A stretch of DNA of 64,000 nucleotides from Candidatus Nomurabacteria bacterium (GTDB lineage: Bacteria > Patescibacteriota > Minisyncoccia > Phycocordibacterales > UBA9973): the NCBI GenBank assembly GCA_016699085.1, contig CP064958.1, positions 540,619-604,618 on the forward strand, written 5' to 3'. The position numbers and the translations under genes are program-made. Shown here piece after piece: positions 2,720-61,566 of the stretch. Each line of letters opens with the position of its first letter. The stretch's first letter is position 1. A model generated the notes under the pieces. The model saw only the letters and a list, made by a program, of their open reading frames with translations. It searched no databases and was not told where the DNA came from.

Positions 2720-3169
2720 TTATTTCTCAGCTAACTGCTTTAATGTTTCTAGGGCTTTTGGCCACATACCGTTAAACATATCCTTGTACTCATCTTTCAC
2801 GTTAATGTCTATAATCAATTCAGTTCCACCATCTTTTTCCTTGAACGTGTAGTTTTCAAAATACAACTCATCAGGTCCATAGCTATTTTCCTTGCCCTGC
2901 ATGATTTCACCCGAGTATTTGATAGAAATAAATTCACCTGGTCTGGATTCTTGTATTTTTCCGATCATCCCTGAAATAGTGCCATTTTTTTCCTTGCCTA
3001 AAAACTTAATATCACTTCCTTCATCCCAACCACCTTCAACATATGATTGTGCTGTGGGGTCAGGATTAAAAACTGATGTCCATTGCTTGTATGTTTCTTC
3101 GCCTAGCATTGTGTCCCAAACTTTTTGCTGAGGAGCATTGATATCAATTGTATAGTGTAAATGTTCCAT
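2720..3169 (-). CDS. SRPBCC superfamily protein (AHSA1/Aha1-like START fold)
   Basis: About 150 aa with polyketide-cyclase/Aha1-like pattern (HYTIDINAPQQKVWD...); ArsR-SRPBCC pairs are a known association; track start 3214 is GTG and ATG 3169 is preferred. Confidence 0.65.
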   Translation of the reverse strand: MEHLHYTIDINAPQQKVWDTMLGEETYKQWTSVFNPDPTAQSYVEGGWDEGSDIKFLGKEKNGTISGMIGKIQESRPGEFISIKYSGEIMQGKENSYGPDELYFENYTFKEKDGGTELIIDINVKDEYKDMFNGMWPKALETLKQLAEK

Positions 3170-3237
3170 ATGTGTATTATTGATTATTCTAATAAAGTTA
3201 TTATAACAAAACACCTGCTTTTAACAGATGTGTCTTG

Positions 3238-3296
3238 TTGGCTCCGAACCTGCTCGCCCGACCTCTGGTGGGGAGGATAATCAGAAGAGTTTGGCA
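3238..3296 (+). repeat. family-A element (ggctccgaacc-tgctcgcccgacctctggtgggg-...)
   Basis: Same core and inner cccgacctctggyggg module as copies at 6371, 7471 and 10630. Confidence 0.65.
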
Positions 3297-3304
3297 AGGA
3301 AGTA

Positions 3305-3330
3305 AAAAAACCTGCTGGTGCAGGTTTTAA
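3305..3330 (-). terminator. intrinsic terminator for gene 3350..3805
   Basis: aaaaaaacctgctggtgcaggtttt. Confidence 0.6.
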
Positions 3331-3349
3331 GCTAATCTTTAGCTAATGG

Positions 3350-3805
3350 TTAGTGATAGAGTACTACTTGTGGATCTGCTTTCTCAATTGCGCTGAAGAT
3401 TATTGGAAGATGAGCTTTGTTCCAAAGTTTCTCTTCCAAAGAGAGTGCAATAGGGCCACTGTTCTGTATTTTGTTTAAGCAGCTCTGAAGTGTACTGATA
3501 TCTTCTATTTCATTCTCTGCATGCAATTTGTAACAGACAATGCCATGGTAAGTATGGTCACTCTTCTTTATTTCAATGATCTCACCAAGTTTTCTCTGTC
3601 TAAAATAATTAAACTCTGGAACTATTTTAGTTTTAACAAGTAATCCTGCAAAACTACTCACTCCTTTTTTTGCGTAAAATTGGCTGCTTAAATCGTTGTA
3701 TCCTGAGGGTGGGTACATATAGATACCATCTGTATTCAGGAGCACTGCAATGTCATGGCACCTAGTTGTGAGAATTGATTCGAGGGATACGTGTTTGAGT
3801 AGCAT
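3350..3805 (-). CDS. hypothetical protein (151 aa)
   Basis: ATG ORF with its own promoter; no recognisable motif. Confidence 0.45.
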   Translation of the reverse strand: MLLKHVSLESILTTRCHDIAVLLNTDGIYMYPPSGYNDLSSQFYAKKGVSSFAGLLVKTKIVPEFNYFRQRKLGEIIEIKKSDHTYHGIVCYKLHAENEIEDISTLQSCLNKIQNSGPIALSLEEKLWNKAHLPIIFSAIEKADPQVVLYH

Positions 3806-4544: not shown

Positions 4545-4868
4545 TTAAATCAGACTCGGATCATTCTTGAACAAAAAAGGTTTTCTCTTTTCAATAAATT
4601 GGATAATCAGTAAGCATAAGACTCCCATAAGTGCGTTATACCAAATACAATCTACTGAATAAGCGTTGCTTTTTATTTTGAAAAGCCAAACAAAAATTGC
4701 TGAAATAGAGGTGCCAAAGAAAAACTGACTAAGGAGCTCTAATCCCTTAACACGCTTTACTAATAGAGAGACAAGTATTGTTATGACAAATAACAATACT
4801 GTGAAATAAAACCAATGTTCATGACTGTCGTTGCGAAAATGGAAAAGTTCACAGAAGAAATTTTGCAC
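4545..4868 (-). CDS. small integral membrane protein (hypothetical)
   Basis: Two or three TM segments; GTG start. Confidence 0.4.
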   Translation of the reverse strand: MQNFFCELFHFRNDSHEHWFYFTVLLFVITILVSLLVKRVKGLELLSQFFFGTSISAIFVWLFKIKSNAYSVDCIWYNALMGVLCLLIIQFIEKRKPFLFKNDPSLI

Positions 4869-9679: not shown

Positions 9680-9855
9680 GGCTCGGGAGGTAGGGTGATC
9701 TTTCGTTACACGAACAGTAGACCTTTTTGAAATGTTCAGAATATATTCTTCACATTTAGCAAAAAGCTTTTCGATCCCTACACGAAAGCCAAGCAGTTGG
9801 CTTTCTCTCCCTCGCCACAAAAACTAAAAACCCCCGAAGGGGTCTAAAGTTTTTG
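9680..9855 (+). repeat. 176-bp direct repeat copy 1, starting with a 16-nt copy of the tRNA-Asn 3' end (ggctcgggaggtaggg)
   Basis: Copy 2 at 11657-11832 lies exactly 1977 bp away; contains hairpins gaaagccaagcagttggctttc and ccccgaagggg and an inverted tRNA T-arm fragment ttcgatccctac. Confidence 0.85.
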
Positions 9856-9886
9856 GGCTCCGAACTTGGGATGATGTTCGAATGAA
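9856..9886 (+). repeat. family-A core (gggctccgaacttgggatgatgttcgaatg) directly after repeat copy 1
   Basis: Sits in the position that the tRNA body occupies after copy 2. Confidence 0.55.
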
Positions 9887-9950
9887 TATAATGAGGAAAT
9901 AAAAAAGCCCTTTATATCACTAAATGAGAAAGGGCTTTAATAAGTGAAAA

Positions 9951-10505
9951 TCAAAGTTTATTTATTTCGTTTGCAATCTCTAAAAGTTTAGGATCGTTAG
10001 TTTTACAAAGAAAAAATAATTGCTCATAATTTTCTGGTGTAGTAGGATTCTGAGCTTTTAATTTTTCAAGGATTTTAGTTGTTAAATTAAACCACTCGGC
10101 CTCAAGTCTTTTTTCAAGAAGAGAGGCTTTTGCACCCCATCCCATTTTTGAAGAGTCTTCATAGACGTTTTTTATCAGTCTAACTTGATCTAGATCATCT
10201 TCTTTTTTGATATTTGCAAGAAGTTTATTAAACGCAATATACATTTGAAGACAGATGAGATCTTTTATTTCCTGAGAAGCTACACTAACCTTTTCGCCAC
10301 TATAACCAAATGCATTTACACCATAATAAAGACTTATGTAATGTTTTAGTTCTCTGCATTTTGCTAGCACAGCTTTAGTTTCTTCAAGATCCCATTCCCA
10401 AATGTGGATACTATTAGCTTTGCTAACTAGATTTTCAATTGGAGAATCAAGAATGATTTCCATCTTTGTTGCACCTTGTCCCTGTGCTTTTTTAAAGAGT
10501 TGCAT
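9951..10505 (-). CDS. hypothetical protein (184 aa), family-B leader
   Basis: Preferred start ATG 10505 (MQLFKK...) placed after the conserved leader; the track start 10568 is TTG. Confidence 0.45.
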   Translation of the reverse strand: MQLFKKAQGQGATKMEIILDSPIENLVSKANSIHIWEWDLEETKAVLAKCRELKHYISLYYGVNAFGYSGEKVSVASQEIKDLICLQMYIAFNKLLANIKKEDDLDQVRLIKNVYEDSSKMGWGAKASLLEKRLEAEWFNLTTKILEKLKAQNPTTPENYEQLFFLCKTNDPKLLEIANEINKL

Positions 10506-10627
10506 AATTTTGTGTTTATTTGATTGGTTTCCACAAAAGCCATTTATGCTCCTCTGAAAACCAATCAAATACTATGTGAAAGGGCCGTACTGCTTATACA
10601 ATACTGTAATATCTTAATTTGTCAAAT
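10506..10627 (-). promoter_or_regulatory. family-B promoter (rc tttgtcaaa) plus leader hairpin tttgattggtttcc...gaaaaccaatcaa
   Basis: Third copy of the module. Confidence 0.6.
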
Positions 10628-10629
10628 TT

Positions 10630-10680
10630 TGCTCCGAACTTGCTTGCCCGACCTCTGGCGGGGGATGATGTTCGGAAGAG
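10630..10680 (+). repeat. family-A element (gctccgaacttgcttgcccgacctctggcgggggatgatgttcggaagag)
   Basis: Same variant as at 6371 and 7495. Confidence 0.7.
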
Positions 10681-10705
10681 TTTAAAAAAATGTTAATGTA
10701 TACTC

Positions 10706-11599
10706 ATGAACTCTAACCTCGCCCCAGAAATATTTCGCAAACGCCTTATTATTGAAGGGAAATACACGGTTGAAATAAAAGAGGAGCAATTTGTCACTGA
10801 TTTCCTCTCTGATCTCTCTAGAGAGCTTGGAATGACAATTATTGCTGGCCCATTTATTTCGAGTGCCACAGGTAAGTCGGTACCCCTTCATGATGGTTAT
10901 GAAGGTTCACTTGTGTGGGCAGAATCAGGAGCAAACACATATATTTGGACACGTTCGAAATTCTGCACCGTTGATATTTATTCATGCAAGGAATTTGATT
11001 CAGAAAAAGCAATCAGTTTTATAAAAGAACGATTTGGCATTATAGAATTTTCATATTTTGAATTACCAGACCCTATGGCTTCAAAGCAAGATTCTCGAAT
11101 CGTATTACGACAAAGTGAAAATAAGGGGAACGGTGTTTTTGCCAATAAGGCAATACCTCAAGGAACAGTCGTTTCTTATGTGGATGGACAGATTCACTAC
11201 GCTCAAAAAGAATCTGAAGTATATGTGCATGCTTCAAATCACGCAGTTCCTTTTCATAAATATTTTTATAGAAATGGCTTCAACACAGACGCAGTCAAAT
11301 TAAATCACTCGTGTGAACCAAATTGCTATGTAAAAGATTTATTTTTCGTGACAACCATGCGAGATATACAAGCTGGGGAAGAACTTACATACTGTTATGG
11401 GCTTTTCTGTAACTCTGATTGGGAAAATCCCGAAGGTGTGTGTCATTGTGGTTCTAAAGAATGTCTTGGAAAAATTCTGCCATGGAGAGAGCTCCCTCAA
11501 GACTTTAAGATTAAATACTTTGACTACACCGCTGATTGGATTTTGTTTGATGAAATAAAGAATAAAGGACTTCTTGAAGAACTAAAGAAAAGCATTTAG
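10706..11599 (+). CDS. fusion protein: N-terminal pyruvoyl-type S-adenosylmethionine decarboxylase-like domain (SpeH/AdoMetDC fold) plus C-terminal SET-domain lysine methyltransferase with post-SET Cys cluster
   Basis: SET: GNGVFA, NHSCEPNC, GEELTYCYG, CHCGSKEC. N-terminal: LVWAESGANTYIWTRSKFCTVDIYSCKEFD aligns to the AdoMetDC VVIAESHLTIHTWPE...AVDVFTCGD pattern including the ES self-cleavage site. Confidence 0.75.
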   Translation: MNSNLAPEIFRKRLIIEGKYTVEIKEEQFVTDFLSDLSRELGMTIIAGPFISSATGKSVPLHDGYEGSLVWAESGANTYIWTRSKFCTVDIYSCKEFDSEKAISFIKERFGIIEFSYFELPDPMASKQDSRIVLRQSENKGNGVFANKAIPQGTVVSYVDGQIHYAQKESEVYVHASNHAVPFHKYFYRNGFNTDAVKLNHSCEPNCYVKDLFFVTTMRDIQAGEELTYCYGLFCNSDWENPEGVCHCGSKECLGKILPWRELPQDFKIKYFDYTADWILFDEIKNKGLLEELKKSI

Positions 11600-11656
11600 G
11601 TTAGAATTTCTAAAAAGGTAACAAAAAATCACCTTGTTTTGAAAGGTGATTTTTCT

Positions 11657-11832
11657 GGCTCGGGAGGTAGGGTGATCTTTCGTTACACGAACAGTAGACC
11701 TTTTTGAAATGTTCAGAATATATTCTTCACATTTAGCAAAAAGCTTTTCGATCCCTACACGAAAGCCAAGCAGTTGGCTTTCTCTCCCTCGCCACAAAAA
11801 CTAAAAACCCCCGAAGGGGTCTAAAGTTTTTG
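11657..11832 (+). repeat. 176-bp direct repeat copy 2, abutting tRNA-Asn
   Basis: Identical to 9680-9855 as far as I can read. Confidence 0.85.
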
Positions 11833-16844: not shown

Positions 16845-16950
16845 GCGATGATTGTACTACGAATATGTTGTTGACACAAAGGCTCGTTTGATGGTCTTTT
16901 TTAAAAACACGAATAATTTGCTGATGCAAATTTTCTTTGCTCGCGCCGTC

Positions 16951-17096
16951 GCGCTGCGCAGAGTCTTTAAAAAAGATCATCTGCACTCGCTTGCAATAAG
17001 AGTCGCGCTGCGCAGAGTCTTTAAAAAAGATCATCTGCACTCGCTGTGATGACAAAATTTCTGCGCAAGGTCTTTTAAAACACCATCTTCATTCGC
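16951..17096. repeat. 54-bp tandem direct repeat (2 full copies plus 1 degenerate) with palindrome ctgcgcag; GC-rich
   Basis: gcgctgcgcagagtctttaaaaaagatcatctgcactcgct at 16951 and 17005; the preceding 17-mer gctcgcgccgtcgcgct is identical to the tRNA-Lys-linked element at about 32965; the track ORFs 16834..17055 and 16852..17049 are repeat artefacts. Confidence 0.8.
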
Positions 17097-28805: not shown

Positions 28806-28936
28806 ACAGAAAATAATTTTCGGCGTGGATTTTTAAGAAGACGGATATTTTCTTGCTAGAAAATTCCTCGTACTCGGCTCGCCAGCCTCACAAGCATCTT
28901 AAAAATCCACACCTCAACAATAAGTATCGACTTATA

Positions 28937-32300: not shown

Positions 32301-32852
32301 TTATATTTCATAGATATACAACGTATGGTATCCGCGAGGCAATGAATATTTTTTTGTCTCGATCGGGGCGAGATCTTTAAACTTAAAGTCACATGAGACG
32401 ATACGAGTGCCAGGCTTGAGTTCCTGCCTTAGTTTAGGTAGCAATGCATCCATAACTTTTGGTAAGAGGTACATAAAAATATGTGTGGCATTATGAATAT
32501 CTACGTTAAAAAAATCTCCGTGGATGAGTGTTAGATTTCTCTTTGACCAAAAGGTATTCCAAAACTTTGCAGTGTAGTAGGGAAGGTCTGCCCACTCAAC
32601 ACCGACCGTATGGATAGTTTTGTTTCTTTTCATAGCGTAGCGAAGCGCTCGGCTGTCGCCACAACCGAGGTCATACAGGATGGCATCCGGAGACAAATGT
32701 AATTCCTCGTAAATATAGGGGAGCATTTTCTCTGGAACTGGCAGAAATGGGACCTTGGTTTTGGCTTTGCCTCGAATAAGCATAATGAGCGCTATGAGCT
32801 CAAAGAGGATAGTGATGATGAGGAGAGTAAGGAAAATATAGTAGAGGGTCAT
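32301..32852 (-). CDS. class I SAM-dependent methyltransferase with N-terminal TM anchor
   Basis: ILYDLGCGDSRALRYA motif I; ATG 32852 preferred; the longer track ORF runs into the tRNA-Lys-linked element. Confidence 0.6.
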   Translation of the reverse strand: MTLYYIFLTLLIITILFELIALIMLIRGKAKTKVPFLPVPEKMLPYIYEELHLSPDAILYDLGCGDSRALRYAMKRNKTIHTVGVEWADLPYYTAKFWNTFWSKRNLTLIHGDFFNVDIHNATHIFMYLLPKVMDALLPKLRQELKPGTRIVSCDFKFKDLAPIETKKYSLPRGYHTLYIYEI

Positions 32853-32930
32853 GAGATGATTTTTGAAATTAATACTTGCGACCCCGCCTCGGCACCGACG
32901 TGCCTGCGGCTCGCACAAGTCCATCTTTGT

Positions 32931-33016
32931 GGTCAGGAATAGTTTTCTACTGAAAACTTTCCCGACCCTGGCTCGCGCCGTCGCGCTCCGCCTCGCACAA
33001 AGTGCCCCGCACTTTG
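32931..33016 (-). repeat. tRNA-linked conserved element, copy at tRNA-Lys (hairpin ggtcaggaatagttttctactgaaaactttcccgacc plus GC module ctcgcgccgtcgcgctccgcctcg)
   Basis: Same family as 45911-46036, 47705-47837 and 61421-61566; the most diverged copy. Confidence 0.7.
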
Positions 33017-41790: not shown

Positions 41791-41876
41791 GCGTCGGTGG
41801 TAGAGTGGTCAATTACAACAGACTGTAAATCTGTCGCCTTCGGGCTACGAAGGTTCGAATCCTTCCCGACGCACCA
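41791..41876 (+). tRNA. tRNA-Tyr (GTA)
   Basis: Acceptor GCGTCGG/CCGACGC, anticodon loop CTGTAAA, long variable arm, CCA encoded. Confidence 0.85.
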
Positions 41877-41984
41877 GAATAGAACTTAGCGGTTTCTTCG
41901 AAACCAAGGAATGGGCGTGCCGAAGGCACGCCCATTCTGTTTGCCCTGATTTTACGGGCGGGTAACTGGAAAAAATATCTAAAA

Positions 41985-42794
41985 ATGATAAAGTATGAAT
42001 ACTTTATGGAATCTTTAGATAACCGCAAACCTCTTACTGGCGGAAAGAAAAAAATTGAAGAATACGTCAATCGTATAAAAAACGGAGAATCTAAAGATTC
42101 CATTTTTCAAGGTTTGCCAGAATCATTTATATCTGGTGTCAAAAAAAAACTTGTAGAGCCACCTGATGAAAAAACGAAACAAGAATTAAATGAAATTCCT
42201 TCGCAGTATAAAGGATTAGATTTTGAAATTCTAAAAACACAAAGACGTGAAGCTGATCAAAAAAAGATTGAGGAACTGAGAAAACAATTAGGAGTCACTG
42301 AAGAACACCTAGATAAAAAAAATATTAATTATGATTTACTAAAACCTGAAGAAGTCTTGATAAAACTTGCAGAATATTGTGAGCCCTATATGAGTGCTCC
42401 ACGAGAGGCTGTACAAGATGGTACGTTTGCAGGTGTAGCGAAACTTAAGATTGAAGCAGGAAATATTGTTCTTATTCGCCATGCTGCAGATGAGAATCAT
42501 TTAATTAAGCAAGGAAAAAATGCATCCGCGCAAGAAATGATGGATTCCAGTTTGTTTTCTGGTGGATCCCATGAAGCAGGAGCAGTTCATACCTCCGCAG
42601 ATGTTGAGAATTGGATTGGTAGATATGAGAGATATCCAGTATATGGAGAATTTCGAATACCGGTAAAAGATTTTTTAGATTTGGCAAAAGAAGGTAAAGT
42701 GATTATTGGTAATCTCGGAGAAGCAGAAATTGTAATTTCAGGTGATGTAGCCAAAAAATATCTAACAAAAATTATTGAGAAAGCTAAAGAATAA
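41985..42794 (+). CDS. hypothetical protein (269 aa, Lys-rich)
   Basis: ATG ORF inside the tRNA-Tyr-linked element. Confidence 0.4.
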   Translation: MIKYEYFMESLDNRKPLTGGKKKIEEYVNRIKNGESKDSIFQGLPESFISGVKKKLVEPPDEKTKQELNEIPSQYKGLDFEILKTQRREADQKKIEELRKQLGVTEEHLDKKNINYDLLKPEEVLIKLAEYCEPYMSAPREAVQDGTFAGVAKLKIEAGNIVLIRHAADENHLIKQGKNASAQEMMDSSLFSGGSHEAGAVHTSADVENWIGRYERYPVYGEFRIPVKDFLDLAKEGKVIIGNLGEAEIVISGDVAKKYLTKIIEKAKE

Positions 42795-42800
42795 ATTTTT

Positions 42801-43376
42801 ATGAAAGATGATCTAAGAATAAAACAATTAGAGAAAAAATTTAAGGTCAAAAATATTGGTCTTTTAACTACTGGTCTATTTTTAGAAGATTTCGGTTTAA
42901 CTATACAAATATCAGACGGAATTCTTGATAAAGAAAGTTTGATTGCGCCCTGTATAGTTTTTGAATTATCAAAAAAGCCAAAATTTAGATTTTTGAGTGA
43001 AAATAAATTCCTTAAATCATACCTGACTAAAATTGGCAAAAAGAACATCAAAGAAATGGGTAATCATGAATATATTAATTATATTTTTTCTTCTACAAAA
43101 AACGGTGAAACACGAGAGTATAAAAAATGGAGAGAGAATAATCAGAAGAAAGTTAAATATATTCACTCCCTAATTTCTAAATTTAATAAGAAAAGAAAAA
43201 ATCCAATATTAGAACTTACTCAATTTGAAGATGGTGTTGCACGAATAGATTTTGGAGCTGACGATTCTCTTTTTAATAAAAGACAAAAAATGAGTTTTGT
43301 AAAAAAGAAAAAGCTTTTCGGTGAAATGCTAAATGAGTTTGGCTTATTTTCTACTAATCTGAAAGTACTTAAATAA
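42801..43376 (+). CDS. hypothetical protein (191 aa)
   Basis: ATG ORF inside the tRNA-Tyr-linked element. Confidence 0.4.
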   Translation: MKDDLRIKQLEKKFKVKNIGLLTTGLFLEDFGLTIQISDGILDKESLIAPCIVFELSKKPKFRFLSENKFLKSYLTKIGKKNIKEMGNHEYINYIFSSTKNGETREYKKWRENNQKKVKYIHSLISKFNKKRKNPILELTQFEDGVARIDFGADDSLFNKRQKMSFVKKKKLFGEMLNEFGLFSTNLKVLK

Positions 43377-43838
43377 ATTCAGCCAGTTTTTCTTTTTTAA
43401 TACCCGCCCACCAAAAATCCAAAATGAATCTGCCTCCCATTCCTCCCCAGACTCCTCCTGCGGGGCGGAAGCTTAAACCCCGCCGAATTTCAAAAACCGA
43501 ACTCGCATTTGTATTCGTACACTCCGTCTTTTCCCTTTGGGAAAGCTCTGTGCTTCGCACAGAGGCGCTTCAGTGCACGGATGTCCGATTAGTGTTTGTT
43601 TTGAAAAATTGTTCGAGCTTGGTACAATAGAGACACAAACAAATCCCGAAAGGGATTTTTGTCTTGTGCGTCGAGAGAAAGCCAACTACTTGGCTTTCGT
43701 AAGGATTCGAAAGATTTTTCGTTATCCGTGTATTACGGATCGAAAAATACCTGTGGCAGTCGGCCGAGAAATTCCTTCCCGACGCACAAAAAAATCAATT
43801 ATATCTCATTTACTTGACAGCTTTGCTATACTTGAAAC

Positions 43839-44393
43839 ATGAATACACAAACAGTTATATTTTCTGGAGGATGTTTCTGGTGCACTGAACATGACTTGAG
43901 GGCGCTTACTGGTGTCAACAACGCAATTTCAGGTTATACAGGAGGAAGCGAAAATACAGCAAGGTATAGTGAAGTTGTAAAGGAAACAACAGGGCACAGA
44001 GAGTCAGTTCTGGTGACCTATAATCCCGAAGTAACAAGCTTCAAGAAAATCTGTCAGTTTTTCTTGGACCACATTGATCCAACTGATGCAGGAGGTCAGT
44101 TTGCTGATCGTGGTGAAAGTTACAAAACAGCAATTTACTACGAAAATGAGGAAGAGAAAGCTATTGCAGAAAGTTTACTCAAAGAGCTCGCTGAAAGCGG
44201 TATTTATGACAAAGCGATCGCAGTTGAAGTATTGCCACGACAAGTATTCTACAATGCTGAAGACTATCATCAAGACTATGCTGATAAAAATCCAGGACAT
44301 TATGGTATGTATCGCAAAGGCTCAGGCAGAGAAGACTTTGTGAACCAAGTGTGCCAAATCCGTGATGATAAAAAGGTGCAGTGGAAGGAGTAA
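43839..44393 (+). CDS. msrA: peptide methionine sulfoxide reductase A
   Basis: GGCFWC active-site motif. Confidence 0.9.
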   Translation: MNTQTVIFSGGCFWCTEHDLRALTGVNNAISGYTGGSENTARYSEVVKETTGHRESVLVTYNPEVTSFKKICQFFLDHIDPTDAGGQFADRGESYKTAIYYENEEEKAIAESLLKELAESGIYDKAIAVEVLPRQVFYNAEDYHQDYADKNPGHYGMYRKGSGREDFVNQVCQIRDDKKVQWKE

Positions 44394-45836: not shown

Positions 45837-45910
45837 GGGCGATTAGTTTAGTGGTAGAACAGCGGTCTCCAAAACCGCTGGCGGGGGTTCGATTCCCTCA
45901 TCGCCCGCAA
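45837..45910 (+). tRNA. tRNA-Trp (CCA)
   Basis: Acceptor GGGCGAT/ATCGCCC, anticodon loop CTCCAAA. Confidence 0.85.
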
Positions 45911-46036
45911 CTTCGAAGAAGTTATCTTTGGGGGAATCGAAGGCCGGAGCGCACGAAGTCGGTCGAAGACCGGCGCGAGGCGGGGTAGCGGAAATTTTCG
46001 AAGAAAATTATCTGTGACCGATTCCCTCATCGCCCT
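45911..46036 (+). repeat. tRNA-linked conserved element, copy at tRNA-Trp, ending with a duplicate of the tRNA-Trp 3' end (cgattccctcatcgccc)
   Basis: gaatcgaaggccggagcg...acgaggcgggg, hairpin gcggaaattttcgaagaaaattatctgtgacc, then the 17-nt tRNA 3'-end copy. Confidence 0.8.
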
Positions 46037-47704: not shown

Positions 47705-47837
47705 GTGCCCAGAGAGAGAATCGGTCACGAGTATTTTTCTACTGAAAAATCTCGCGACCCCGCCTCGTGTCGCCACGCTCCGGCTTTCGATTCTCTTGAC
47801 CATTATAAAAACACTTCAAAAAGAAGTGTTTTTATAA
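47705..47837 (-). repeat. tRNA-linked conserved element, copy at tRNA-Leu(CAA): 19-nt duplicate of the tRNA 3' end, hairpin ggtcacgagtatttttctactgaaaaatctcgcgacc, GC module, then a perfect palindrome cattataaaaacacttc/gaagtgtttttataatg
   Basis: gtgcccagagagagaatcg appears at 47705 and again as the tRNA 3' end at 47840. Confidence 0.85.
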
Positions 47838-61420: not shown

Positions 61421-61566
61421 GCTGGGGGACAGGGATTCGGTCACAGGTATTTTTCTACTGAAAAATCTCGCGACCCTGCCTCGCACCGTCGTGCTCCGGC
61501 TTTCGAATCCCAACCCGCCCCATCGATGCAAATTTGCAATAGAAGTATCTATACAAATTTCCATTG
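61421..61566 (-). repeat. tRNA-linked conserved element, copy at tRNA-Gln: 19-nt duplicate of the tRNA 3' end (gctgggggacagggattcg), hairpin gtcacaggtatttttctactgaaaaatctcgcgacc, GC module ctgcctcgcaccgtcgtgctccggctttcgaatcc
   Basis: Duplicate of 61564-61582; the track ORF 61391..61705 is spurious. Confidence 0.85.

Follow-up and report, generated by a model that had tools for sequence, protein, structure and literature searches.

One class of integrase sites begins in the T-loop of a tRNA gene. At integron attC sites and the attP hairpin of the CTX phage a duplex site is rebuilt from a folded single strand, and in group II introns, through the pairing of exon-binding and intron-binding sites (EBS-IBS), as with the bridge RNAs of IS110 elements, a strand encoded by the element pairs with the target. 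The tycheposon islands of Prochlorococcus contain scattered partial tRNAs, and their newest entries lie by the tRNA while older ones decay outward (bioRxiv 10.1101/2020.12.28.424599). Here we describe a 1.9-kb insertion between tRNA-Tyr and msrA in a 64-kb stretch of DNA from a Candidatus Nomurabacteria bacterium (64,000 nucleotides of contig CP064958.1, hereafter the window), together with the family of miniature, tRNA-matched elements to which it belongs. The insertion is bounded by a copy of the tRNA 3' end, as in tRNA-targeted elements, and its arm carries a conserved, covarying fold with a strand complementary to that end.

The insertion at tRNA-Tyr

A 15-nt block close to the 3' end of tRNA-Tyr, TCCTTCCCGACGCAC, recurs exactly upstream of msrA (Table 1). 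It occurs exactly twice in the window, even when two mismatches are permitted, and none of 100 dinucleotide-preserving shuffles contained two or more matches. With their flanks included the two tRNA-Tyr end copies agree at 18 of 20 nt. The span between them is 1,913 bp and holds two open reading frames (ORFs) and a non-coding stretch of about 414 nt (43377-43788), the G+C content of which is 0.45-0.51, against 0.24-0.28 in ORF2. A preliminary description of the locus had placed the end of tRNA-Tyr at 41876, on which ARAGORN and Rfam agree, and a 15-17-nt copy of that end at 43773-43788. The exact copy does start at 43773 and lies beyond chance in the shuffles, but its length is 15 nt rather than 16 or 17.

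The state of the locus without the insertion was found in a relative, the metagenome contig L136, which has the same promoter and tRNA-Tyr and a neighbouring protein 88% identical to the DHH-family protein of the window. Here the tRNA-Tyr gene reads ...TCCTTCCCGGCGCAC/AAAAGAAATTATAACC... (slashes mark junctions) and the msrA start codon lies 55 nt further on, an arrangement that the preliminary description had proposed to look for in relatives. This spacing marks the 1,913 bp as a discrete insertion. The tRNA-Tyr of L136 ends in GCAC/AAAAG and does not encode its CCA, whereas that of the window ends in GCACCA and does. The flank of the distal copy, GCAC/AAAAAAATCAATTATATC (AAAAAAATCAATTA), is similar to the empty-site trailer AAAAGAAATTA in L136, and also to the region upstream of msrA in a second relative, L146. 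In contrast, the flank of the proximal copy, GCAC/CAGAATAG, is unlike the empty-site trailer, so that the distal copy is the original, CCA-less tRNA end.

Alignment of these sites thus indicates that the 3' part of tRNA-Tyr took up the 1,913 bp as an insertion, with a copy of the tRNA 3' end as its boundary. The 3' part of the present tRNA, from about the T-loop on and including GCACCA, was supplied by the incoming DNA together with a trailer that bears a 13-bp hairpin, and the tRNA stays intact; the original 3' end, with its own trailer and msrA, was displaced downstream. The polymorphism may reflect gain in the window or precise loss in L136, and the unit is discrete and repeat-bounded either way. 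Three states of the tRNA-Tyr locus are now seen, empty in L136, occupied by a unit without cargo in L146, and occupied by the 1.9-kb form in the window. We also observed that in L146 (4187-4534) tRNA-Tyr, its promoter and the cargo-less unit are inverted between the same neighbours, the DHH protein gene and msrA, and that the breakpoint on the msrA side is the junction that follows the distal repeat in the window. An exact-protein look-up of msrA returned a match in the same genome only, and the whole 1.9 kb had no match in phage and plasmid collections.

The right arm of the miniature element is 43659-43787. Within it an anti-acceptor segment and an anti-T segment together cover most of the displaced tRNA 3' strand by pairing, with a conserved hairpin branching between the two. 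This hairpin (43677-43698) has a covarying stem and a conserved AACTnCTT loop, both in relatives and across the candidate phyla radiation (CPR). Parts of the arm recur elsewhere in the window: GAGAGAAAGCCAACTnCTTGGCTTTCGT / GAGAGAAAGCCAACTACTTGGCTTTCGT matches at 27 of 28 nt downstream of tRNA-Asn (9782-9809 and 11759-11786), and GAAAAATACCTGTG has an exact match downstream of tRNA-Gln (61442-61455). The earlier proposal that the arm shares motifs with the tRNA-Asn and tRNA-Gln elements therefore stands, as does the assignment of all three to one family, which is supported by shared motifs, repeats and arm architecture; what had been missed is that the arm is a conserved covarying fold with a strand complementary to the tRNA 3' end. 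We also considered the arm as coding sequence. It contains ORFs of 52-101 aa, but the region is kept as DNA with indels and tetraloop hairpins.

The tRNA-matched module, its fold and its distribution

Five of the nine tRNA genes in the window are followed by a same-strand copy of their own 3' end, and a covariance model, R1, adds tRNA-Lys as a sixth (Table 1). An exact inverted copy of the T-loop and 3' T-stem, the anti-T, of at least 11 nt lies between tRNA and repeat at Asn, Tyr and Leu; at Gln it measures 10 nt (gggattcgaa), and at Trp the corresponding closing helix is visible in the fold and the model alignment. The Gln, Trp and Leu arms, which we call type 1, share one order of parts: anti-T and GAAA; GCCGGAGC-hairpin-GCGAGGC; GG; GGTCGCG-hairpin-CGTGAC; and the tRNA copy from C56 of the T-loop. 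Folded alone, each forms a three-way junction (z = -2.4 to -4.5) in which the anti-T pairs with the tRNA copy to make the closing helix, and the junction carries two covarying hairpins and an invariant G.U pair.

The fold was examined in an alignment of 32 'short-type' copies, 89 nt in length. Paired cells make up 90.8% of the predicted pairs, compared with 32-45% when the partners are slid, and there are 176 double-sided changes against 53.7 +/- 6 in shuffles, a value reached in none of 500. Each of the eight closing-helix pairs changes on both sides, in step with the target tRNA. The pair 48-76 is G.U in every one of the 32 sequences, and 50-74 is G-C in 17 and G.U in 15; these wobble pairs assign the fold to the tRNA-sense strand. 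The three closing pairs beside the junction are either Watson-Crick (TCG opposite CGA) or tandem G.A (GAG opposite CGA).

A second arrangement, type 2, is seen at Tyr and Asn, where the order is terminator hairpin, anti-acceptor, hairpin with the AACTnCTT loop, anti-T, covarying hairpin, ACCTGYG... and tRNA copy. Two relatives, L146 at tRNA-Tyr and L144 at tRNA-Trp, have the same architecture with compensatory changes, which rules out that the Tyr and Asn arms are decayed type-1 modules. Many type-1 copies in other genomes also have an anti-acceptor and the conserved hairpin upstream. In another class of insertion, exemplified by tRNA-Lys, the module abuts the tRNA, beginning exactly at the discriminator, and the repeat is just CAC with a few trailer bases. 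Most modules contain a complementary pair X:X', with the identity boundary fixed at GTGAC/C56, and in most units a terminator hairpin stands between tRNA and module. Unit sizes range from 93 to 240 bp, and units of 93-175 bp have no ORF.

Searches of Rfam 15 assigned the modules to no family, either at the gathering threshold, at E <= 5 for the whole window or at E <= 10 for small regions; tRNAs alone reached the gathering threshold. Literature searches found no prior description of the module. A paper on group I introns in Patescibacteria tRNAs concerns anticodon-loop position 35/36 and is unrelated to it.

A scan for the core pattern in one genome per species returned at least 120 stretches, and most of those in low-GC genomes come from Patescibacteria and have the same architecture. 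The module lineages include Saccharibacteria, Paceibacterota, Kaiserbacteria, Zambryskibacteria and others, in dozens of Patescibacteria genomes. Pattern matches in high-GC genomes were set aside as chance coding matches, as were the seven matches in IMG/VR, all of them GC-rich and coding. Among Patescibacteria loci with enough upstream sequence, a tRNA on the same strand ends no more than 300 nt upstream of 45 of 67 modules, in most cases at 14-122 nt, where about 3% would be expected by chance (149 tRNAs per 801 kb, both strands), and the tRNAs concerned represent 13 amino-acid types. The next gene downstream lies on the same strand in 44 of 64 cases and on the opposite strand in 20, at distances from -17 to 1022 nt; the 20 opposite-strand genes and the scattered distances rule out the module as a 5' leader of the following gene. 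No protein family recurs beside it either: when the neighbours of 75 loci were clustered the most frequent family was present at six, and a protein consistently linked to the module is thereby excluded. The larger elements carry small unrelated genes. We conclude that the module family is widespread in Patescibacteria and undescribed in the libraries searched.

Turnover of the modules was visible in the relatives L144-L146, which encode a methyltransferase 90% identical to that of the window and cover three of the same tRNAs. At tRNA-Leu(CAA) the trailer AAAATAAGCATAGCGTTTTT follows the tRNA directly in L144. In the window it lies exactly 135 bp further, after a second ...TCTGGGCAC copy, which identifies the 135-bp type-1 Leu unit as a discrete insertion. 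This unit has its own CCA, terminator hairpin, anti-T and core, and an older module lies beyond it in both genomes. The small units themselves are therefore gained or lost precisely. At tRNA-Trp the module of the window (45929-46032) is of type 1 and its 17-nt repeat is perfect, whereas that of L144 (9745-9880) is of type 2 with a decayed repeat; different types at one tRNA in a 90%-identical relative indicate that modules are replaced at a given tRNA on short timescales. Tandem copies are found at Leu, Lys and Asn, with the newest unit beside the tRNA and the older ones decaying outward.

Further copies show additional features. Repeated entries at one site are indicated by some loci (L012, L103 and L057) in which a tRNA 3' end is present three times or a module follows a cluster of several tRNAs. 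In the first tRNA-Lys module a compensatory change has turned the helix GCC/GGC, invariant elsewhere, into GGC/GCC. Of the four strong type-1 copies in this genome, three (Gln, Leu and Lys, but not Trp) have the P3 loop AGTA, as does L009, whereas almost all other genomes have AGCA, which suggests intragenomic spread or co-evolution with a lineage-specific partner. Degenerate modules also occur away from tRNAs, at 16894-17090 (minus strand, 38 bits), where they form a short tandem array in a divergent intergenic region, and at 28824-28908 (minus strand, 29 bits). The two tRNA-Asn arms flank a 297-aa protein and a 205-aa unknown protein, and their duplication looks like a single-crossover (Campbell-type) event. 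The 297-aa protein has a weakly S-adenosylmethionine-decarboxylase-like N-terminus (PHROG E = 6.5e-7; NCBIfam E = 3.2e-6, under the cut-off) and an NHSCEPN motif that, by eye only, recalls SET domains.

Table 1. Features of the tRNA-Tyr insertion and other members of the module family in the window
Feature	Position	Strand	Evidence or remark
tRNA-Tyr (GTA)	41791-41876	+	ARAGORN; Rfam tRNA 62.4 bits; 15-nt repeat 1.9 kb downstream
Proximal identity block TCCTTCCCGACGCAC, attL-like	41860-41874	+	exact repeat search
Degenerate left inverted repeat of nested unit, outer part truncated	41885-41966	+	alignments against left repeat of L137
13-bp GC-rich hairpin GAATGGGCGTGCC-GAA-GGCACGCCCATTC, then TGTTT, in new trailer after tRNA	41909-41937	+	
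Gene 1	41985-42794	+	269 aa; NCBI start 42006 gives 262 aa
Gene 2	42801-43376	+	191 aa, lysine-rich
Right inverted repeat of nested unit, GC-rich, UUCG and GAAA tetraloop hairpins	43385-43636	+	conserved in L137 and L139
Terminator-like hairpin AAATCCC-GAAA-GGGATTT, start of the miniature element's own arm	43641-43658	+	same position as terminator hairpin of L146
Anti-acceptor segment (..GTGCGTCGAGA)	43659-43676	+	18 nt, 83% complementary to 43777-43794 (acceptor 3' strand of distal copy)
Conserved 5' hairpin GAAAGCCAA-CTAC-TTGGCTTTC	43677-43698	+	27/28 nt common to both tRNA-Asn arms
Anti-T segment AAGGATTCGAA, reverse complement of tRNA-Tyr T-loop and 3' T-stem	43701-43711	+	11 nt, 100%
Central hairpin (ATTTTTCG...CGAAAAAT), then ACCTGTG; counterpart of type-1 P3	43714-43755	+	compensatory changes in L146, L144 and Asn
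Distal identity block TCCTTCCCGACGCAC, displaced original tRNA 3' end, then original trailer and msrA	43773-43787	+	
msrA	43839-44393		Pfam PMSR E = 3.7e-54
Type-2 arms at tRNA-Asn, two	9680-11830	-	182 nt, 100% identical, 1977 bp apart; 16-nt repeat, two copies, ~175 nt and 2.15 kb downstream
Two tandem modules at tRNA-Lys, class abutting tRNA end	32847-33015	-	R1 82.2 and 20.9 bits; repeat CACAAAG
Type-1 element at tRNA-Trp	45909-46035	+	R1 70.6 bits; 17-nt repeat 129 nt downstream
Type-1 element at tRNA-Leu(CAA), 135 bp, cargo-less	47705-47837	-	R1 93.3 bits; absent in L144; 19-nt repeat and 11-nt second copy, 135 nt downstream
Type-1 element at tRNA-Gln	61421-61565	-	R1 93.1 bits; 19-21-nt repeat 145 nt downstream

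The nested two-gene unit

Both genes that the preliminary description reported between the copies, of 269 and 191 aa, are present. It had regarded them as cargo still carried by the att-bounded (attachment-site-bounded) element, and this does not hold: they form a separate unit, which in the contig L137 is bounded by inverted repeats with no tRNA nearby. The repeats of L137 are about 300 nt long (307-609 and 3094-3395) and 97-100% complementary, and the same repeats flank the unit in L142 (225-279 and 2150-2204, 55 nt at 100%), where they reach the contig end. The right repeat has its homologue in the window at 43385-43636, a stretch that matches the left repeat of L137 in reverse complement. 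The non-coding right arm of about 400 bp proposed earlier is thus real and GC-rich, but some 250 nt of it belong to the nested unit and not to an att-like arm. On the left side a degenerate inner part of about 80 nt is all that is present, with the inner motif ACGGGCGGGTA compared with TACCCGCCC at 43400-43411. Terminal inverted repeats of the kind that define transposons with such repeats and miniature inverted-repeat transposable elements (MITEs) are accordingly found in L137 and L142, and in the window the right repeat alone is complete.

The unit is placed between the new tRNA end (GCACCAGAA) and the terminator-like hairpin of the arm, and in L146 the homologous arm follows tRNA-Tyr directly, without cargo. 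These comparisons point to a second mobile unit nested in the miniature element, which is probably immobile now because its left repeat is truncated. The most economical history would be that the miniature element came first, that the two-gene unit then entered its spacer, and that it was later truncated. An outward promoter-like site (TTGAAA-16-TACAAT, upstream TG) is present at 43601-43628. The inverted-repeat unit of L137 likewise has promoter-like sites facing outward at both outer ends, and no recognisable transposase. Neither gene 1 nor gene 2 matches a transposase family, and the L137 ends show no clear target duplication.

Homology searches on the two proteins, suggested in the preliminary description, did find homologues but no profile family: neither has a match in Pfam, PADLOC, PHROGs, NCBIfam or PDB sequence profiles. 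The first ~120 aa of gene 1 are common to a polymorphic protein family of the CPR. The long start of gene 1 (269 aa) is not on record in the exact-protein look-up. The AlphaFold2 models of both proteins are confident, with pLDDT values of 85.6 (gene 1) and 87.9 (gene 2). The top 13 Foldseek matches in the PDB to the C-terminal ~120 aa of gene 1 all have the ADP-ribosyltransferase fold, the best being cholera toxin A1 (E = 9.6e-3, probability 0.96), with weaker matches that include Scabin, pierisin, a guanine-specific transferase and Tpt1. The residues R165, H201-T-S203 and E246-x-E248 sit on predicted strands; the close homologues that were aligned (P0002-P0017) retain them, apart from isolated substitutions in the two that diverge most. 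In the R-S-E (cholera-toxin-like) ADP-ribosyltransferase toxins, to which cholera toxin A1, Scabin and pierisin, with Tpt1, link the predicted fold, the candidate Arg, H-T-S and E-x-E of gene 1 would fall on the corresponding strands; unlike for those toxins, the structural E-values are marginal (9.6e-3 or weaker) and there is no sequence-profile match. The predicted model is therefore suggestive of an ADP-ribosyltransferase-like C-terminus, which is not established.

Gene 2 had no structural match in the PDB when its AlphaFold2 model was searched with Foldseek, and with no fold match at all it was ruled out as a serine recombinase or invertase, which its size of about 190 aa and its position within inverted repeats had suggested. 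Its family is small, with 27 representatives at E <= 1e-3 and no Pfam annotation. The homologues are 66-89% identical, and each follows a protein of 409 or 663 aa whose likeness to gene 1 is confined to the N-terminal ~120 aa. This layout of conserved N-terminus, swappable C-termini and a small partner gene resembles polymorphic effector loci and is the point of likeness to polymorphic toxin loci. However, gene 2 tracks the N-terminus and not the toxin-like domain, and so is not a typical immunity gene. We also observed a gene 1 homologue (56% identical) in another CPR genome (L129, 4906-5948), which starts 23 nt after tRNA-Thr without a flanking repeat; a weak module match lies on the opposite strand at 4756-4837.

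Mechanism, rival explanations and known systems

The placement of these elements is site-specific and scar-free, within the block of tRNA genes that runs from the T-loop to the 3' end. The explanation we favour, to which we assign a probability of roughly one half, is that they are non-autonomous elements mobilised in trans via a folded single-stranded att site. The element would be moved by an enzyme encoded elsewhere and its mobile form would be single-stranded, which is favoured because units of 93-145 bp are too small for double-stranded circles and the single-strand fold is conserved. The fold would rebuild a double-stranded copy of the target site beside a conserved recognition core, recombination would occur within the identity block, from C56 of the T-loop to the 3' end, and new copies would enter beside the tRNA and push older ones outward to decay. 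The terminator between tRNA and module argues against obligatory co-transcription. The earlier statement that the insertion has no recognisable integrase is upheld: the cargo proteins have no match in Pfam, NCBIfam, PHROG or PADLOC, a weak motif scan of the window ORFs found no recombinase motif, and no integrase is present in the long element of L050.

Several points weigh against mobilisation in trans of a folded single strand. No recombinase was found in any member examined, the integrase search having comprised the motif scan of the window and the family scans of cargo proteins. Single-strandedness is deduced from unit size and fold, empty sites may represent precise loss rather than gain, and the inversion of tRNA-Tyr in L146 leaves the ancestral state of that locus ambiguous. 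Nor does this reading explain how the target-complementary segment and the tRNA copy would be rewritten to suit a different tRNA. The core is conserved across lineages of Patescibacteria, among them Saccharibacteria, Paceibacterota and Kaiserbacteria, to a degree above that usual for att sites, and the invariant G.U pair, the alternation of G-C with G.U and the tandem G.A at the junction are more typical of a selected RNA than of DNA sites.

These last features are also the basis of an alternative that we regard as doubtful but serious, namely that the module functions first of all as an RNA associated with tRNA genes. It could be a ribozyme for self-cleavage or processing, a small RNA that RNase Z releases and that pairs with the tRNA 3' end, or the guide of an RNA-guided recombinase, with the insertions and repeats being the way in which the RNA gene spreads or arises. 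Its covariation is strong, the wobble pairs lie on the tRNA-sense strand, and tandem G.A stands in for Watson-Crick pairs at the junction. The loops GACG and AGCA are conserved, and permuted 'open' forms with a local 5' hairpin occur, as in small ribozyme classes. The module is always on the tRNA strand, mostly at the short distance given above, and in the abutting class it begins precisely at the discriminator; that the element encodes a strand complementary to its target recalls the EBS-IBS pairing of group II introns and the IS110 bridge RNAs. Against a primary RNA function, the terminator hairpin of the unit stands between tRNA and module with no conserved promoter seen, there are many copies per genome, decayed ones included, and neither an adjacent protein partner nor an Rfam match was found. 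Nor does the module lie consistently upstream of a same-strand gene (44 same, 20 opposite).

It is improbable, in our judgement, that the small units are deletion remnants of integrase-encoding prophages or integrative elements, similar to cis-mobilisable elements (CIMEs), with the module an attP arm left beside attR. The anatomy is classical for such remnants, with the tRNA rebuilt, a distal partial copy and tandem accretion with the newest unit proximal, as in tycheposon islands, and the T-loop is where the identity block begins, as it does for one class of integrase sites. However, the larger elements examined contain no integrase or fragment of one and none recurs in the 75 loci, the phage and plasmid collections gave no match and IMG/VR chance matches only. 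The 135-bp Leu unit, facing a clean empty site in a 90%-identical relative, would need integration and near-total deletion within a short time, and the same end product would have to recur at six of nine tRNAs. The module also has covarying hairpins, which to our knowledge attP arms do not keep. A slim chance falls to spread with no dedicated machinery, by natural transformation and homologous recombination through conserved tRNAs and flanks or resident modules, the modules having arisen rarely by replication errors. Two identical 182-nt Asn arms flanking 1.8 kb are what a single crossover with a one-arm circle would give, and tRNA genes are near-identical between relatives; left unaccounted for are the matched sets of anti-T, anti-acceptor and repeat seen for 13 or more tRNA types, the constant left edge of identity (GTGAC/C56) and the conservation of the core across Patescibacteria. 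Deletion remnants and recombination alone each account for some of the data, yet neither accounts for the conserved core or for the matched helices specific to each tRNA.

Beyond mobilisation in trans, a broader reading is that the conserved three-way-junction module constitutes a new class of mobile element in Patescibacteria, although we hold this only tentatively and would not expect it on balance. It would be an 'addressable' unit of 90-175 nt, re-addressable to many tRNAs, with a closing helix that specifies the tRNA 3' end, acting either as a folded single-stranded att site used by a host enzyme or as an RNA, catalytic or guiding, that steers its own insertion. The genomes of Patescibacteria are very small, and little is understood of how they gain genes. 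Six of the nine tRNA genes in the window bear tiny, self-contained insertions that rebuild the tRNA, some of which shelter accessory genes, and the filled sites differ among close relatives. If the module is the recognition site or guide of a recombination system, this would explain the build-up of accessory genes beside tRNAs, and would provide a compact site whose target is set by base pairing and a conserved structured nucleic acid absent from Rfam. Annotators should note that, in CPR genomes, a partial tRNA copy or a GC-rich 'intergenic' block is often one of these elements, and the module family merits direct experimental work.

Among known systems, MITEs, repetitive extragenic palindromes (REP) and bacterial interspersed mosaic elements (BIME), and the Correia and BOX elements are likewise short, multi-copy, structured, non-autonomous and intergenic. 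The present family differs from them in lacking fixed terminal inverted repeats and a target duplication of fixed length, and in having a tRNA-specific address and being conserved across a superphylum. A closer likeness in how the target is specified is found in group II intron EBS-IBS pairing, the IS110 bridge RNA and IS1111 seekRNA, and the omega RNA of TnpB, where an end segment is complementary or identical to the flanking target and changes with it. Here the two target-related segments pair with each other, the architecture is different, and the 75 loci have no adjacent reverse transcriptase, IS110 recombinase or TnpB. A DEDD/Tnp recombinase stands beside the guide RNA in IS110 and IS1111, whereas the 93-175-bp units have no ORF and no recurrent neighbours.

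Integron cassettes, with their attC sites, and the CTX attP hairpin are similar in being small and recombinase-less and in rebuilding a duplex site from two complementary segments with variable structure between them. Integron cassettes also form tandem arrays with the newest beside the target, and their cargo is optional and short. In our family, by contrast, the core between the complementary segments is conserved, and the target is the T-loop and 3' end of a tRNA rather than attI or dif. Dependence on IntI or Xer belongs to those systems, and the single-stranded form proposed here is a deduction. Where an integron platform comprises IntI, an adjacent attI and the promoter Pc, the modules target many different tRNA genes and have no conserved adjacent protein.

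The tRNA-targeting integrative elements, CIMEs and tycheposons share with this locus the insertion into the 3' part of a tRNA, the restoration of the gene by the element's own copy, the partial copy at the far end, the outward displacement of older entries by repeated new ones, and empty sites in relatives. The two marks of such elements, a direct repeat of the tRNA 3' part beside an intact tRNA and an empty site in a relative, were both found at tRNA-Tyr. The differences are that no tyrosine recombinase was found in the members of the present family examined, that whole units measure as little as 93-145 bp, that the arm folds into a conserved, covarying structure containing a complement of the target, and that matched sets for many tRNAs occur in one small genome. 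We conclude that the locus is a new variant of tRNA-targeted integrative elements.

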